Shown one piece after another: positions 2,078 to 16,531 of a stretch of 16,531 nucleotides of DNA. Within the stretch, counting starts at the first letter, position 1. Every line of letters begins with the position of its first letter. Under the pieces are notes generated by a model. That model saw nothing but the letters and a program-made list of their open reading frames with translations. It was not told the DNA's origin and did no database searches. The position numbers were made by a program, and so were the translations under genes. Source of the DNA: Planctomycetota bacterium (GTDB lineage: Bacteria; Planctomycetota; UBA1135; UBA2386); assembly GCA_947501605.1 (NCBI GenBank), contig CANMWZ010000057.1, forward strand, positions 1-16,531, in the 5' to 3' direction.

Positions 2078-3700
2078 TCAGTGCCCGACGATCTGGTCGT
2101 GCAGCGACGCTGCCGTCTGCATGATCGTCGCTACGTCCGGCGCCCCGACCTTGGCCCATTGCAGCGTCGACTGCAGGTGGCCGGCGACAGCGGCGAAGTG
2201 CTTGTCGGTGATGCCGCGCCCGCGGTGCGCCGCGGTCATGTCTTTGCCCTTGTAAGCCTTGGGCCCGCCGAGTGCCGCCGTCAAGAACGCGACCTGGTGC
2301 TGCTTCTGCTTCTGTAGGTCGGTCTTGGCGAAGAGTGGCTTCAACAACGAGTCGGCGGTCACGCGGCGGTAGAACTCGTCGACCACTGCGTGCAAAGCGT
2401 TCTTGCCGCCGATGCGGTCATAGATGCTCGCTTTCGAAGGGGTATGCGTCGATCCGCTAGACGTTGTCGCTGGCCCCGACTTGGTGCCGCCGCGGATCTC
2501 GGCGAGGAAGCTCTCGACCGAGGAGTGCAGCATCTCCGCCTGCTCCGACAGGGCACTCGCAGCCTCGAGCATCTGGCTCGCCGCTGTGCTGGTCTCTTGT
2601 GCTGCGTGCGTCAAGGTCACGATGTTTCGGGCGACGTCTTGCGTGCCCGTCGCAGCCTGCTGCACGTTCTCACTGATCTCACCGGTCGCGAGGCGCTGCT
2701 GCTGCACGGCATTCGCGATCGACGAACTGATGTCGTTCATCTTCTGGATGGTCGCCGAGACCGACTGGATCACCGTGGCCGTTCCTTGCGACGCCGTCTG
2801 CATAGCCGAGATCTGGGTGCTGATCTCTTCGGTCGCTTTGCTCGTGTTCTGTGCCAGCGATTTGACCTCGCTGGCGACTACCGCGAAGCCCTTGCCCGCT
2901 TCGCCCGCGCGAGCAGCTTCGATGTTGGCGTTCAGCGCGAGCAACTGCGTCTGCCCGGCGATCTGCGCGATCAGCTTGAGCACCGAGCCGATGCGATGGC
3001 TGGCTTGAAGCATGTCGCGAACGCTCTGATCGGCGCGACCGGCGTGCTGCATGGCTTCGCCGGCGATCTTGGTGCTGTTCTCGGCTTCGCGACCGATCTC
3101 GGCGGCGCTGGCAGTCAGTTCTTCCGTCGCTGATGCGACGGTCTGCACGTTTGCCGAGGTCTGCTCCGAGGCGGCTGCCACACTGGTTGCGCGTTCGGTC
3201 GTGCCCTCGGCCGTGTGCGTCAGTGTTTGCGCTGTCGCCTGCATTTCGGTTGCGGAGCTGGCGACGGTCGCGACAACCCCCTGGATCTGGCGTTCGAAGT
3301 CGTCGGCGAGCTGCAGGCGTCGCTTCCCGGCATCGGCGATCGCCGCGCTAGCGGCCTGCATCTGCTCCGTGGCAGAGTTGATCTGCGTGGCGGCACTGCG
3401 GAATGTTCCAGGGAGCCCGCGCAGGATCACCCTGCGCCAGAAGTGTTGCTTGCTCGCGTGACTCAGCGCTGCGCACGATTCGCGGACGAATGCATCCGTG
3501 ATGTCGAGCATGCGGTTGATGGACACTGCGAGTTGCATGCAGTCCCCGTCGAGGTCGTCGAAGGCGATGCGCTCTTCCAGGTTGCCGTCGGCGGCAGCAT
3601 CGGCGGCGCGGATCGCGCGGCGCATCACGTCGCGGTAGCGAGCCAGTTCGTCGCCGGTATCGACGTGGATGGGGGCGATGTAGTCGGTGCTGGAGGTCAT
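2078..3700 (-). CDS. Soluble methyl-accepting chemotaxis protein (2x HAMP + MCP signalling domain) with C-terminal group I truncated haemoglobin
   Basis: Hairpin-tip motif [37 protein letters not shown]. No hydrophobic TM segment. N-terminal HAMP-like segments. C-terminal ~116 aa SIYDRIGG...VDEFY...PLF...[25 protein letters not shown]...HFAAV matches GlbN/trHbN. RBS AAGGA precedes the ATG. Confidence 0.92.
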
Positions 3701-3716: not shown

Positions 3717-4235
3717 TCAAACGCGGAACGCGAACTCGCCGTAGGTCATCGAGGCCTTCTCGAGCATCGTCACCAACTCGCGGGTCGCCGCGGCGATGCC
3801 GTCTCTCTTGCTCTCGTGCCGTAGTTCTTCGCGCAGGAGCTGCTCGTAGATGGGTTGGATGCGCTGCACGGCAGCTCGATCCGGAGACCTCCGGTTGCTG
3901 TGAAAGCCGATGATGTCGCCCCTCGGGCCGAACGTCGGGGTCACGTGCGCGAAGACCCAGTAATGGTCGCCGTTCTTCGCGAGATTGACCACATAGGCAA
4001 AGATCTCGTCGCCGCGCTGGATCGTGTCCCAGAGCAACTGGAAGACTGACCGCGGCATGTCCGGGTGCCGGATCATGCTGTGTGGCTGCCCGATCACCTC
4101 GCTGGCGCGATACCCCGCGATCTTCAGGAAGACGTCGTTGGCATAGGTGATGCGGCCCTTCTGGTCCGTCTTGCTGACGATGATCTCCTCGTCTCCGAAG
4201 GTGATTTCTCGGCCCGATGGCGTGATGCGAGTCAT
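3717..4235 (-). CDS. Stand-alone Aer/CetB-like FAD-binding PAS domain protein
   Basis: IVSKTD-x2-[20 protein letters not shown]3-F-x2-LW and [19 protein letters not shown] are Aer PAS signatures. No TM or MCP domain. Ends 16 bp upstream of the MCP gene, consistent with an operon. Confidence 0.9.
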
Positions 4236-11212: not shown

Positions 11213-11309
11213 GTCTTCGGGCGCACCCGCGCCCGCGTTCCCGGTGGTTGCCGCTAGGGCTGCGTGCCGCCCACGTCCCGCGCCGCGCAGAGCCGCCGCC
11301 ACGCGCCCG

Positions 11310-11338
11310 TTGGTGCCTGCTTGCTGCCTCGCTACACT
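11310..11338 (+). promoter_or_regulatory. Possible sigma-70-type promoter for icd
   Basis: TTGGTG-N17-TACACT, 33 bp upstream of the icd ATG. The -35 match is weak. Confidence 0.3.
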
Positions 11339-11371
11339 GCTCGGCCCACATTCCGCCGAGAGCAGATTCCT

Positions 11372-12595
11372 ATGGCCGAACGCATCACCATGTCCAAGTC
11401 GGGCCTCCACGTGCCCGACCAGCCCATTCTCCCGTTCATTGAAGGCGACGGCACCGGTCGCGACATCTGGCGCGCATCGGTGCGAGTCCTCGACGCCGCG
11501 GTCCAGAAGGCCTACGGCGGCAAGCGCAAGATCGCATGGAAGCAGGTGCTCGCTGGTGAGGCCGCGTTCCAGCAGACGGGCAACTGGTTGCCGGACGAGA
11601 CCGTGCAGGCGTTCCGCGACTGCCTCGTCGGCATCAAGGGTCCGCTGACCACGCCGGTCGGCGGTGGCATCCGCAGCCTCAACGTGGCGCTGCGTCAGAT
11701 GCTCGATCTCTACACCTGCCTGCGCCCGGTGCGCTGGTTCAAGGGCGTGCCGTCGCCGGTCAAGGAGCCGCACAAGACCGACATGGTCATCTTCCGTGAG
11801 AACACGGAGGACATCTACGCAGGCATCGAGTTCCAAGAGGGCACCGAGGACTGCAAGCGCTTCCGCACGATGCTGCAGGAAGCCTTCCCCAAGCAGTTCA
11901 GCAAGGTTCGCTTCCCGGACAGCAGCGGCTTCGGCATCAAGCCGGTGTCGCGCGAAGGCACCGAGCGCCTCGTGCGTGCGGCCATTGAGTACGCGCTCGC
12001 CAACAACCGCGACTCGGTCACCTTAGTGCACAAGGGCAACATCATGAAGTTCACCGAGGGTGGCTTCCGCGACTGGGGCTACGGCCTCGCCAAGAACGAG
12101 TACGGCGCGCAGGACCTCGACGGCGGCCCGTGGCAGGTCATCAACAAGAACGGCAAGAAGCTCATCATCAAGGACGTGATCGCCGACGCGTTTCTGCAGC
12201 AGATCCTGCTGCGCCCCGCCGAGTACTCGGTGGTTGCGACGCTCAACCTCAACGGCGACTACATCAGCGACGCGCTCGCGGCGCAGGTGGGCGGCATCGG
12301 CATCGCGCCGGGCGGCAACGTCAACTACGTGACCGGCCACGCGGTGTTCGAAGCGACGCACGGCACGGCGCCGAAGTACGCCGACCAGGACAAGGTCAAC
12401 CCGGGCTCGGTCATCCTCAGCGGCGAGATGATGTTCCGCTACCTGAAGTGGAACGAGGCCGCGGACCTGATCCTGAAGGGCATGGACGGCGCCATCGCCA
12501 AGAAGCAGGTGACCTACGACTTCGCCCGTCTGATGGACGGCGTGAAGGAGATCAAGTGCTCGGAGTTCGCCGACGCAGTCATCGCCTCGATGTGA
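11372..12595 (+). CDS. icd: NADP-dependent isocitrate dehydrogenase (E. coli-type homodimeric)
   Basis: [65 protein letters not shown] and [10 protein letters not shown] (KY is the NADP-type signature). Start placed at ATG 11372. Confidence 0.97.
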
Positions 12596-12657: not shown

Positions 12658-12706
12658 AAAAAAAGAACGACGCGAGTCGCCTGAGGAGTGGCGGCGCGCG
12701 TCGTTC
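12658..12706 (-). terminator. Intrinsic terminator, copy 1
   Basis: Minus strand GAACGACGCG-C-GCCGCC-ACTCCTCA-GGCGAC-T-CGCGTCGTTC followed by T7. The 10-bp outer stem is perfect. Confidence 0.8.
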
Positions 12707-12831
12707 AGGTGCTGACAGCAACTCGACCACCGCGAAGAGGCCGAGAAGTTCGTCGCGCAGCAGCCCCCCGAGCTCTTGGACTCAGGACTCGGAGACTCGT
12801 TGCGACTCACTCGAGGAGCCGCTGCGCGACG
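12658..12831 (-). ncRNA. Putative sigma-54-dependent structured small RNA, copy 1 (~175 nt)
   Basis: Bounded by the sigma-54 promoter and an intrinsic terminator. 22-bp 5' stem (12751-12831) begins at the predicted +1, a second 7-bp stem follows, and there is no credible internal ORF. Confidence 0.7.
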
Positions 12832-12910
12832 TGAGCCATAGAGCAATGGCTGTGCCAGCGCTGCGCAGTGGTCGAATGCGCGTTTCGGCGACAGCGCTTG
12901 CGGCGCGCCA
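12665..12910. repeat. Direct repeat copy 1 (246 bp; weaker similarity extends to ~12960)
   Basis: Ungapped match to 13126-13371 at offset 461, with 9 mismatches by manual comparison. Confidence 0.95.
12842..12857 (-). promoter_or_regulatory. Sigma-54 (RpoN) -24/-12 promoter, copy 1
   Basis: Minus strand reads TGGCAC-AGCCA-TTGCT, a perfect TGGCAC-N5-TTGCW. Predicted +1 near 12831. Confidence 0.85.
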
Positions 12911-13117
12911 TGTCGTCTCGTGCGTCATGCCGAACGCGGCGTGTGCGCGGCGCGGACGCGATGCGCGGGCGTCTGCCGGCGGTGGGCTCGCCGAGGTCGG
13001 CGCACAAGGCAGTGTTGCGGGCGTCGCGGCTGCTGCACCATCTCCACGAGGCACAACTCTCCACCCGTCACAGCGGACGCCACGAGTGAGAACCGCGCAC
13101 GGCAAAGAGGGCGGCGC

Positions 13118-13167
13118 AAAAAGACGAACGACGCGAGTCGCCTGAGGAGTGGCGGCGCGCGTCGTTC
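13118..13167 (-). terminator. Intrinsic terminator, copy 2
   Basis: Identical hairpin followed by GTCTTTTT on the minus strand. Confidence 0.7.
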
Positions 13168-13292
13168 AGGTGCTGACAGGAGCTCGACCACCGCGAAGAG
13201 GCCGAGAAGTTCGTCGCGCAGCAGCCCCCCGAGCTTTGGGACTCAGGACTCGGAGACTCGTTGCGACTCACTCGAGGAGCCGCTGCGCGACG
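13118..13292 (-). ncRNA. Putative sigma-54-dependent structured small RNA, copy 2 (~175 nt)
   Basis: Same architecture as copy 1. The four internal differences fall in loop or linker positions. Confidence 0.7.
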
Positions 13293-13371
13293 TGAGCCAT
13301 AGAGCAATGGCCGTGCCAGCGCCGCGCGGTGATCCAATGCGCGTTTCGGCGACAGCGCTTGCGGCGCGCCA
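13126..13371. repeat. Direct repeat copy 2
   Basis: Ungapped match to 12665-12910. Confidence 0.95.
13303..13318 (-). promoter_or_regulatory. Sigma-54 (RpoN) -24/-12 promoter, copy 2
   Basis: Minus strand reads TGGCAC-GGCCA-TTGCT. The only difference from copy 1 lies in the N5 spacer. Predicted +1 near 13292. Confidence 0.85.
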
Positions 13372-13846
13372 AGTTGCGTTGTGCGTCGGAGCGCACGCCC
13401 CGTGTGCGCTACGCATACGCAGGCCGGTGGGAACGCAGGGCGCACGGCGCACGGCGCACGCAGCTAGCGGCAACAGCAGCAGCTGCTGATGCAGGTGCCG
13501 CGCATTCGCAGTGATGCAGCAAGCCTTCCACTCCGGCAGGCGAAGGGCATCGCCGTAGAAAAGAGCATGCGCTCGCGAGCATGCGAGCTCGCGAGCGCAC
13601 ACCGGCCAGGAGCGCTGTAGTTCGTGGTCTCGGTGGTGCGCGACCAAGTGGTTTCGACTCGAGTCCGCCAGTGCCCGCGTGGTGCGCGGCCCGACGAACT
13701 GCTGAAGACAGGCTTGCCGCGGAAGAAGCAACGAGTGTGCCGGAGCTCAAATGTCCTCGTTGCGAACGCCGGCCATGCGGCGCGAGGCGACGGTGTCCGC
13801 AAGGCGCGCAGGGCAGCGACGGAAGGCTGCGCGCGACCCTCGGACA

Positions 13847-16531
13847 TCAGGCATCGTCGTCGTCGTCGTCCGCGCACGGCGCCACGGCCCATTCGGGATA
13901 CGGCTCGGCACTTCCGCGCATCGCGCGCCACAGGATGCGGTTGAGCGTGTCCTCGGGGGCGCGGTCGATCTCGCGGAAGTTCAGCGACTCGGAGACCTCG
14001 GCATCGCGCCGCAGCTGCGGATCGAGGATCGCCGTCTTGGCCGGGCTCTTCTCGTCGAGCGGCACGTTGCTCGGCAGCGCCGTGAACGGCGTGTAGTCCG
14101 GCGTTTCGGTGAAGCACTCCGTCATCGGCGAGGCGCTGGCGTCGAACACGTTCATCGGTGGGATGCCGAGGACTTGTTCGATCGTGCGCAACACGCTCGT
14201 GGTGTTGTACTGGTGACTGACGGTGACACCGCGCTTGCAGAACGGGCTCGCGAGGTAGCACGTGGTGCGATAGCCGCTGACGTGGTCCCAGCCGTTCTGC
14301 GGGTCGTCCTCGATGCCGATCACGAGCGAACTGCCCCAGAAGCGCGACTTGCTGATCCCTTCGACGATGCGTCCGAACGCGAGGTCGTTGTCGGCGAGGT
14401 AGGCCGCAGGCGAAGGCCATTTCGGCGAGGTGCCGTTGGTGTGGTCGTTGGGCAGGCAGATCAACACGAGCTGCGGCATCGTGCCGTCGCGTTCCCACGT
14501 CGCGAGATCCTCGAGGAAGCGATCGGCGCGCAGCTGGTCGGGCACGGCCATGTTCCAGCCGACGGTGTCGAGGCGACTGTGCGGCACGAGCGACGGCAGC
14601 GAGGCCGTGCACGCGAACACGACGTCATCGCCCTTGTCGCGCCACGCGCGGAAGCACGCGTCGAAGGACGGCTCGCCCTTCCTGCCGTCGCGCCACGTGA
14701 CGGCGGGCATGCAGAACTCGCCGTAGTTGCGCAACGTGACGCCGCGCGCGATCGCGTGGTCCCACAGGAAGCCGGCAGGCGAATACGACAGCGCGTCGAC
14801 CTCGTTTTCGCCCATGCCGTCGGGATAGCTGCGCGGCCACCCGGCGAAGCTCTTCTCGAGGTAATGGCTCGCGAACGCAGCCGTGCTCCACTGGTGACCG
14901 TCGGCGCTGAGGATGCCCGCGCAGTAGGTGTTGTCGAGCAACACGAACTGCCGCGCGATGGCGTGCTGGTTCGGCGTGATGCGCTCGCCGAACACGCACA
15001 GGCTCGGATCGCCGTTGCCCTCTTTCATGTCACCGAGGACCTGGTCATAGGTGCGGTTCTCCTTGATGACGTAGACGACGTGCTCGATGCGGCTCGGCTC
15101 ACCGATGCGCTCGGGGATCGCGCGCGCAGCCACGCCGTCGCGCGGCGGCAGCAGTGCCTGCTCGATCGTCTCGGCGCGCAGGTTGACGTCGACCTTCGCG
15201 GTCAGCTCGGCGAGCTCGTCGTCGGAAGGCACGGGCACGATCGACAGCGAACCGTGGTACTGGTGCGTGTTGAACTCGTTGCCCTTGCCCTCGCGCGCGC
15301 GGCCGAAGGGCAGACCCTTCACGTTGGCGGCGATCACGCGTTCGCGCTCGGCGTCGAAGGCGAGCGCACCGGGATACCAACCGACGGGCACGTAGCCGAG
15401 CACGCGGCTGTCACCCTTGTCCTCGGGCTCGAACTGCAGCACGGCGATCGCATTCATCGACGCATTGGCAACGAACAGGCGCTCGCCGTCCTCGTCGAAG
15501 CAGAGCGACGACGGCGTGGCGGTCAGCAGGTCCGAGGGTTTGCCGCGCGCCCACAGGGTCTCGACGAGCGCACCGGTCGTTGCGTCGAGCACGGACAACG
15601 TGTCGCTGCCGGGATTGGCGCTGACGACGAAGTCGCCGTCGGGCGAGACGGCGAGGCCGGCGCACGACAGGCCGGTGATCGTCTCGGTGACGACGTGGAA
15701 GCGCGCGAGGTCGATCACGCTGACGCTGCCCTCGCTGGCGATGTGGCGCACGGGATCGACGCGCACGGTCGTGCCGCGGCCGGCGGGACCGGTGAGGTCG
15801 CCGTTCGCAGGCCTTCGCCCGCCCTGGTTGCTGACGAACAGCTTGTCGCCGGCGAGCACGACGTCGTACGGCGCGACGCCGACGTCGATGCGGCGCAACT
15901 CGGTACCTGTCTTGGCATCGAGTTCGAGGAGGCGGTTGCCGAGATTGCCGCACACCCAGAGGCGCGCACCGTCGGGCGACACGGCGATGCCGGCGGGGAT
16001 CTCGGCCTCGCGGCCGGGCGCGTTCGCGGGCGGCAACGGGATCGAATGCGACGCGGTCACGGTGCCGTCGTCGGCGACGGCGAAGACCTTGATCGAGCCC
16101 TGCACGTTCGCGAGCCAGATCGTGCGGCCGTCGGGCGAGACGCAGAGGCCGGTGTAGCTGACCTGGGAGTCCTTCTCGGGCGCGAGTTCGCGATCGCTGG
16201 GCTTGTTCGCAGGCTCGCGCAGCTTGTCGCTCGGCAGCTTGACGCGTTGGAGCAATGCGCCGTCGTCGGCGGACAGCACGACCAGTTCGCTGGTCTTGCC
16301 GGAGACGTAGATGCGCGAACCGTCGCGCGAGAGCGCGGTGACCTGCGGGCGCAGGCCGGCGAGGTCGACGTAACCGCCGTGCGGGGTGAGGAGTTGGTTG
16401 ACGGGGGTTTGTTGGGTGCCGGAGGGCTGGCGGCCGACGGGGGCTGTGGGGGCCGGCGGGAGTGGGCGCGGGCGCGCGGAGCACGCGGCGAAGAAGGATG
16501 CGGCGAAGGCGGCGGCGAGACGGAGTCGCAT
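13847..16531 (-). CDS. Lipoprotein, bifunctional YVTN/YncE beta-propeller + phosphoesterase (alkaline-phosphatase superfamily)
   Basis: Signal peptide with lipobox FAA-C. Propeller repeats (SPDG...VG-x-AP, VPVGWYP). Phosphoesterase motifs HVVYVIKENRTYDQVLGD, SADGHQW, LPNDHT, DND and EDD-x-Q-x-G-x-DHV. The ATG lies exactly at the window edge. Confidence 0.88.
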   Translation of the reverse strand: MRLRLAAAFAASFFAACSARPRPLPPAPTAPVGRQPSGTQQTPVNQLLTPHGGYVDLAGLRPQVTALSRDGSRIYVSGKTSELVVLSADDGALLQRVKLPSDKLREPANKPSDRELAPEKDSQVSYTGLCVSPDGRTIWLANVQGSIKVFAVADDGTVTASHSIPLPPANAPGREAEIPAGIAVSPDGARLWVCGNLGNRLLELDAKTGTELRRIDVGVAPYDVVLAGDKLFVSNQGGRRPANGDLTGPAGRGTTVRVDPVRHIASEGSVSVIDLARFHVVTETITGLSCAGLAVSPDGDFVVSANPGSDTLSVLDATTGALVETLWARGKPSDLLTATPSSLCFDEDGERLFVANASMNAIAVLQFEPEDKGDSRVLGYVPVGWYPGALAFDAERERVIAANVKGLPFGRAREGKGNEFNTHQYHGSLSIVPVPSDDELAELTAKVDVNLRAETIEQALLPPRDGVAARAIPERIGEPSRIEHVVYVIKENRTYDQVLGDMKEGNGDPSLCVFGERITPNQHAIARQFVLLDNTYCAGILSADGHQWSTAAFASHYLEKSFAGWPRSYPDGMGENEVDALSYSPAGFLWDHAIARGVTLRNYGEFCMPAVTWRDGRKGEPSFDACFRAWRDKGDDVVFACTASLPSLVPHSRLDTVGWNMAVPDQLRADRFLEDLATWERDGTMPQLVLICLPNDHTNGTSPKWPSPAAYLADNDLAFGRIVEGISKSRFWGSSLVIGIEDDPQNGWDHVSGYRTTCYLASPFCKRGVTVSHQYNTTSVLRTIEQVLGIPPMNVFDASASPMTECFTETPDYTPFTALPSNVPLDEKSPAKTAILDPQLRRDAEVSESLNFREIDRAPEDTLNRILWRAMRGSAEPYPEWAVAPCADDDDDDA

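Follow-up and report, generated by a model that had tools for sequence, protein, structure and literature searches.

This report concerns a cluster of small RNA (sRNA) genes predicted in a Planctomycetota bacterium, on contig CANMWZ010000057.1 of assembly GCA_947501605.1, a 4.65-Mb draft genome of 89 contigs with a G+C content of 66% and a completeness of 91%; the window analysed is the entire 16.5-kb contig (16,531 nucleotides). Two direct copies of a shared 253-nt unit, the proximal (12658-12910) and the distal (13119-13371), lie 461 nt apart on the minus strand and are separated by a unique spacer of 208 nt (12911-13118) that is non-repeated in the pairwise alignment. The pair sits between icd, the isocitrate dehydrogenase gene (11264-12595, plus strand; Pfam Iso_dh, E 1e-89), which is convergent with the cluster, and a gene assigned by Pfam matches to a beta-propeller plus phosphoesterase protein (13847-16531, minus strand), which lies upstream on the same strand as the cluster. 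Both genes serve as syntenic anchors; in relatives, too, the cluster has the conserved C-terminus of the phosphoesterase on its upstream side. The pair is preceded by a third unit of sigma-54 type, sRNA-3 (13558-13741, minus strand), with GGCAC-N5-TTGCT at 13741-13727, a body of approximately 150 nt and a strong terminator at 13603-13564. The original prediction recognised the two units, their promoters and their stems, all of which stand, and overlooked both sRNA-3 and the array of GAGUC(C) motifs which, as set out below, is the best-conserved part of the predicted RNAs.

Repeat search and pairwise alignment bore out the earlier description of two ungapped, approximately 96% identical copies, the 253 aligned columns containing 11 differences (95.7% identity). 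Each unit carries a perfect sigma-54-type promoter, TGGCAC-N5-TTGCT, at 12857-12842 in the proximal and at 13318-13303 in the distal copy (minus strand). Perfect TGGCAC-N5-TTGCW sites occur just eight times on both strands of the genome, two of them being these promoters, while of the remaining six three are directly upstream of genes and three are within genes. Given the C of the -12 GC at 12843 and 13304, promoter spacing would place the +1 at 12831 and 13292, that is, on the first base of stem 1, in agreement with what had been proposed. The predicted RNAs of approximately 174 nt (12658-12831 and 13119-13292, with predicted ends) comprise stem 1, the 22-nt arms of which are 86% complementary and 37 nt apart (12831-12810 with 12772-12751, and 13292-13271 with 13233-13212), a second hairpin (12745-12722 and 13206-13183) and a GC-rich terminator hairpin (12706-12665 and 13167-13126) followed by a U-tract (12664-12658 and 13125-13119), the terminators of both units being listed by a terminator scan. 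Folding energies of the two 174-nt RNAs are -92.3 and -90.7 kcal/mol (z-scores of -4.8 and -5.2), a stability reached by none of 200 shuffles. The 11 differences between the copies fall upstream of the promoter (four), in the N5 spacer (one), in the large loop (two), between hairpin 2 and the terminator (two) and in the U-tract (two), leaving the stems and promoter boxes untouched; as some 41% of positions belong to a stem or box, simple arithmetic puts the chance of such avoidance at about 0.003.

When 60 relatives were searched with the unit by BLAST, only short matches of at most 45 bits were returned, and homologues were instead recovered through synteny with icd. In each of the four other congeneric genomes two units occupy the icd-adjacent space, with TGGCAC-N5-TTGCTCT followed by a long hairpin and a terminator, such that a distal and a proximal unit are found between the phosphoesterase gene and icd in all five genomes of the genus, and also in two further metagenome lineages (L070 and L081). 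A pattern built on the features of these units matched five of five genomes of the genus and none of 86 genomes from 40 other genera of the family, with no matches for the reversed pattern. A stricter version, in which GAGTCC was required twice, was run on all species genomes, where it yielded 13 loci (four members, eight chance promoters in front of open reading frames (ORFs) and one Victivallales array), and on metagenome contigs, where four of 16 loci were members and L070 and L081 were added. A covariance-model search of 91 family genomes did not find the GAGUCC family outside the genus, the best matches there being a look-alike terminator (G087) and a unit of genome G018 (27 bits) that is considered further below.

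Alignment of 14 non-identical units from the seven lineages established that GGCAC-N5-TTGCT is invariant in all 14 while the spacer and flanks vary, and that the stem begins 13 nt past the -12 C in every unit. Pairing is kept in 96.3% of the cells of the two helices, and both partners have changed in 14 of the 29 pairs, a degree of covariation reached by none of 500 shuffles, with slid controls pairing at 23-49%. No conserved ORF was found, the longest frames of the 14 units being 13-51 codons and differing in length, frame and sequence. Synteny, invariant boxes, covariation and the lack of a conserved ORF together argue that the two units are very probably genuine non-coding, terminator-bounded sRNA genes with sigma-54-type promoters, which upholds the earlier proposal on a comparative footing, and the same comparison points to selection as having kept the promoter boxes, the long 5' hairpin and the terminator. 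The 7-bp second stem described previously fared less well, as it is contained in the predicted fold of the host RNAs yet is peculiar to the host genome, relatives having a GAGUCC-rich linker in its place. Identity between the distal and proximal unit is 55-67% in the six other lineages against 95% in the host genome, which suggests that the near-identity arose in the host lineage through gene conversion or re-duplication; the pair itself is old, and the near-identity of its copies is the exception.

Dependence of the units on sigma-54 is likely, and the host genome is equipped for it. The presence of rpoN, a point on which the original prediction had made itself dependent, was established twice over, as two Sigma54_DBD loci scored above the cut-off (C3:214129-214605 and C1:207562-208038, in open frames of 482 and 524 amino acids, respectively), and 25 Sigma54_activat matches were obtained, corresponding to approximately 18 full-length enhancer-binding proteins. 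Most of the 14 units contain, approximately 35-65 nt ahead of the -24 box, a conserved block, CCGCA-N5-6-GCGTYCRC-WWT, that represents a candidate activator-binding or bending site. In the host genome this block falls inside the duplicated part of the unit and is common to both copies, in the promoter-proximal upstream part of the proximal unit (12858-12910, minus strand) and, identical in kind, in that of the distal unit (13319-13371, minus strand). No activator gene was present among the Pfam matches in the window, and the neighbouring genes (icd, phosphoesterase, peroxiredoxin) gave no firm hint to a signal.

The feature that sets these RNAs apart is a short motif, GAGUC or more often GAGUCC, of which the host RNAs each carry four copies in the apical loop of stem 1 (12779-12808, two of the four being GAGUCC, in the proximal and 13269-13240 in the distal unit, minus strand). 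Across the 14 units GAGUC occurs 82 times in 2318 nt, 56 of these being GAGUCC, as compared to approximately 2.6 occurrences in shuffles (the highest count being 9-10 over two runs of shuffling) and a genome frequency of 0.92 per kb. Each RNA has four to eight copies on the same strand, spaced 7-14 nt apart, placed in the apical loop of stem 1 and in relatives also in the linker before the terminator, and the extended consensus approximates to A-R-U-GAGUCC-W-R-A-G. The 82 GAGUC copies contrast with two of GACUC and none of GAUUC or GAAUC, a strict strand specificity that argues for recognition at the RNA level and against an array of DNA methylation or binding sites. The motifs are unpaired in the RNAalifold consensus structure. 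It is their array, rather than the stems, that constitutes the conserved core of the RNA. In the host genome four or more GAGTC within 50 nt are found at these two loci alone. Two other GAGUC clusters, at C38:18960 and C42:17029, were inspected and neither appears related; the former (C38:18960-18980, minus strand) is a 13-nt tandem repeat, CUGCGAACUGRGUCC, in four to five copies directly past a stop codon. A further idea, that the motifs mimic tRNA, with GAGUCC resembling the T-loop and T-stem and CACCA the 3' end, was dropped, GAGUCC being present in merely 4 of the 46 tRNAs of the genome.

Several readings would deny the units the status of sRNA genes. That the duplication is an assembly artefact might be suspected of copies 95.7% identical in a draft of 89 contigs, and is the least credible of all the alternatives, as contigs of independent RNA-library runs bridge the unique spacer (X1 piece 12881-13197, X2 piece 12906-13155) and two units occupy this place in every relative. 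In these data the X1 contig over the proximal unit carries, at 12851-12874 of the window, the five upstream variants of the distal copy, either as strain variation or as an assembler chimera between the copies. A DNA-level element, whether a protein-binding or GANTC methylation array or a dispersed repeat of the repetitive extragenic palindromic or miniature inverted-repeat transposable element type, would fit with GAGTC being a GANTC site and with the tandem repetition of the unit; it is nevertheless highly improbable, since the G variant alone is present and on one strand (82 GAGTC, two GACTC, no GATTC or GAATC), RNA pairing is maintained by compensatory changes, and the array is located between a conserved promoter and terminator. 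As both BLAST and the covariance model found only the two copies in the host genome, each with two matches and all in this locus, the unit is not a dispersed repeat, and two of the doubts that had accompanied the original prediction, over mobile repeats and over assembly, can be laid aside. That the units encode small proteins, or act as leader or attenuator for a gene further down, is if anything more improbable still: a 50-amino-acid frame does open in the host-genome units, but the longest frames (13-51 codons) differ in sequence and most read through the terminator, and no same-strand gene follows, the next features being another unit and the convergent icd.

The family appears to be uncatalogued. 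Rfam 15, with Qrr, CsrB/Rsm, CrcZ and GlmY/Z among its families, gave no match at gathering score over the whole window, and the highest-scoring minus-strand matches below threshold within the units (20.1 bits with a gathering score of 268, and 17 bits with a gathering score of 50) are noise; a title- and abstract-level search for literature on planctomycete sigma-54 sRNAs, planctomycete post-transcriptional control and GAGUC-repeat sRNAs found none. The kind of gene is known, sigma-54-dependent, paralogous and terminator-bounded sRNAs being represented by Qrr, CrcZ/Y, GlmY, NrsZ and Pxr, while this family is new. One close parallel is offered by CrcZ/CrcY/CrcX of Pseudomonas, protein-sequestering sRNAs of approximately 400 nt that depend on sigma-54 and CbrB and have Hfq/Crc as partner, with which it shares the sigma-54 promoter, the repetition of one short motif within each RNA, the existence of paralogues and a titration, here predicted, of an RNA-binding protein. 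It differs from these in length (approximately 170 nt), in the motif, as the A-rich AAnAAnAA of CrcZ does not occur in the 14 units, in the partner, as Hfq was found in none of six genomes while Crc was not searched for, and in showing no sequence or Rfam relation. CsrB and RsmX/RsmY/RsmZ resemble it in having short-motif arrays in loops and linkers, species-variable copy number and redundant paralogues; their motif is GGA, however, which is under-represented here (30 versus 49.5 in shuffles), CsrA was likewise found in none of six genomes, and their genes are subject to GacA/UvrY-type activation and not to sigma-54. Since neither GGA nor A-rich motifs are enriched, the RNAs are not of the CsrB or CrcZ type. 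The Qrr1-5 RNAs of Vibrio (RF00378) are also terminator-bounded, present as several paralogues and controlled by sigma-54 with an enhancer-binding activator, but act by Hfq-assisted pairing through one conserved region without a motif array, and the Rfam model has no match here. Pxr of Myxococcus and Cystobacter and NrsZ of Pseudomonas have sigma-54-type promoters as well, Pxr with tandem paralogues and NrsZ with repeated modules; these units bear no sequence relation to either, and to our knowledge a GAGUCC array has been described for neither.

How such RNAs might act is a separate and more tentative matter. Our preferred interpretation, to which we accord slightly less than an even chance, is that the RNAs of approximately 170 nt act as decoys that titrate an RNA-binding factor through their GAGUCC arrays. 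An enhancer-binding activator at the conserved upstream block would switch on both genes under some signal, the sigma-54 promoter pointing to a signal-controlled switch; the RNAs would then accumulate, each molecule offering several binding sites to a sequence-specific partner, and titration would free the other targets of that partner, as CsrB/RsmZ do for CsrA and CrcZ for Hfq/Crc. The partner would have to be other than CsrA, Hfq and ProQ, and the two RRM-domain proteins encoded by the host genome (C1:13026-13241 and C6:15527-15742) are candidates. A decoy is preferred over multi-seed pairing on the grounds that neither CsrA nor Hfq nor ProQ was found and that sites complementary to the motif are not enriched at gene starts. 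It is further favoured by the two-fold variation (four to eight) that orthologues show in the copy number of an otherwise fixed motif, sponge RNAs typically varying in motif copy number where single-seed sRNAs do not. The strand specificity of the array, its unpaired state in the consensus fold and the poor pairing of the loop with the regions around gene starts (given below) point the same way, and we also count in its favour the positional counterpart in G018, which has the same build with a different short motif (CACCAC).

A number of results weigh against the decoy interpretation. No known partner came to light, CsrA and Hfq each being found in none of the six genomes searched (completeness 62-93%) and ProQ not being found in the host genome, and the leaders of the two RRM genes contain no GAGUC. 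Other GAGUC arrays to which the same factor might bind, in mRNA leaders for example, were not found in the genome, and sense GAGUCC at gene starts numbered 41 versus 30.9 expected (-60 to +20 of 1624 starts). The starts are crude, being assigned by an ORF and third-codon-position G+C rule, and their 1624 genes cover approximately half of the genome. In thermodynamic folding the motifs had an unpaired probability of 0.39 as compared to 0.33 for the rest of the RNA; they are not clearly single-stranded in such folding because GAGUC weakly self-pairs. Finally, four metatranscriptome runs from two studies contain the stretch as contigs. Coverage by these RNA-library contigs is much the same over icd, spacer and units, and the contigs are interrupted at the borders of the repeat. 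Transcription of both units is accordingly a prediction from promoter and terminator structure, and the contigs speak neither for nor against a discrete RNA.

The main competitor of the decoy interpretation is that the units specify sigma-54-dependent base-pairing sRNAs, in which each GAGUCC would be a redundant seed for mRNAs containing GGACUC and the two genes would serve dosage; this is possible but, in our view, rather unlikely. It draws on the same gene-level evidence (invariant boxes, covariation, no conserved ORF), base-pairing sRNAs too can carry repeated exposed motifs, as multi-seed designs such as C-rich loop sRNAs and the repeated modules of NrsZ illustrate, and paralogous sigma-54 sRNAs such as Qrr act in this manner. 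Against it, GGACUC occurred 33 times at -60 to +20 of the 1624 crude starts versus 30.9 expected and was likewise unenriched in other windows, and the duplex energies of the loop with these regions were weaker than those of ten out of ten shuffled loops (mean -25.2 versus -26.5 to -28.9 kcal/mol). Hfq and ProQ, moreover, were not found in the genomes searched, and the number of motifs varies two-fold between orthologues. The hexamer counts and duplex energies are weak tests, as with crude and partial gene starts a small base-pairing regulon of a few genes would escape them. An improbable third reading is that the sigma-54 transcripts are neither decoy nor antisense and represent processed precursors, scaffolds, or a sink for sigma-54 or its activator. 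The density of promoters, three within 1.25 kb here and five within approximately 2.1 kb in G018, would be consistent with this, and the 22-bp stem would suit as an RNase III-type substrate; it leaves the strand-specific conservation of GAGUCC unexplained, and no test result favours it. The GAGUCC motif could serve as bait for the RNA-binding factor, or for the targets, in a lineage for which none is known. If the decoy interpretation holds true, the CsrB/CrcZ principle would have been invented independently here, using a new motif and partner, and if not, the units are one more lineage-specific family of sigma-54 sRNAs in an uncultured genus, of moderate interest.

The gene starts themselves show some features worth recording. 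Within -60 to +20 of the 1624 crude starts there is no Shine-Dalgarno-like enrichment, while C-rich hexamers (CCCCCC, CCCCTC, CCCTCC) and CCCATGA are enriched four- to five-fold, and TAGACT is enriched 16-fold (25 cases), possibly as a -10-like box of short-leader mRNAs.

The third unit, sRNA-3, occupies the same place in all seven lineages with a conserved terminator region and belongs to a different family, one without the GAGUCC array. In six lineages it has a shared pyrimidine-rich stretch (CUCUCGUC...GUCGCCCC), in place of which the host copy has CACCAC-type motifs. A comparable arrangement was found in genome G018 of genus g15 (L090, G018:C10:194494-197641, minus strand), where the 2.1 kb downstream of icd contain five sigma-54 sites in a row on the convergent strand. 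The first of these fronts a unit resembling sRNA-3, the loop of which contains two GAGUC, three others are followed by a long 5' hairpin, four to six CACCAC-type motifs and a terminator, and the fifth fronts a small ORF of approximately 66 codons. Among 26 loci of other genera inspected for sigma-54 sites downstream of icd, 23 of them with 1500 nt available, G018 alone was positive. These observations invite a broader reading, which we regard as doubtful and put forward as speculation, in which a family lacking CsrA, Hfq and ProQ would run its own sigma-54-controlled RNA-sponge system. The icd-side locus would be a nursery of sRNAs, the arrays (of GAGUCC in this genus and of CACCAC in both sRNA-3 and genus g15) would titrate unknown sequence-specific RNA-binding proteins, perhaps of the RRM type, and the principle might extend across the Planctomycetes-Verrucomicrobia-Chlamydiae superphylum, given the GAGUCCCAAG-like repeats of a member of the Victivallales.

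The Victivallales array was recovered from a metagenome-assembled genome (L062, minus strand). In the reverse complement of this locus, from approximately position 1500 onwards, some 17 tandem repeats of 9-10 nt (variants of GAGUCCCAAG and GUGUCCCAAG, these two included) come immediately after a perfect sigma-54 promoter, and a gene stands downstream, approximately 330 nt away. The repeated motif resembles GAGUCC-W-R-A-G, and the resemblance could be due to chance, analogy or a shared partner. In the host genome, GUGGUG is depleted upstream of the 1624 crude gene starts.

Elsewhere in the window, a gene on the minus strand (2078-3700) encodes a bacterial globin domain of the truncated type placed C-terminal to a methyl-accepting chemotaxis signalling domain, an order of domains that is atypical for a globin-coupled sensor, and it is adjoined by a gene for a small PAS protein (3717-4235).

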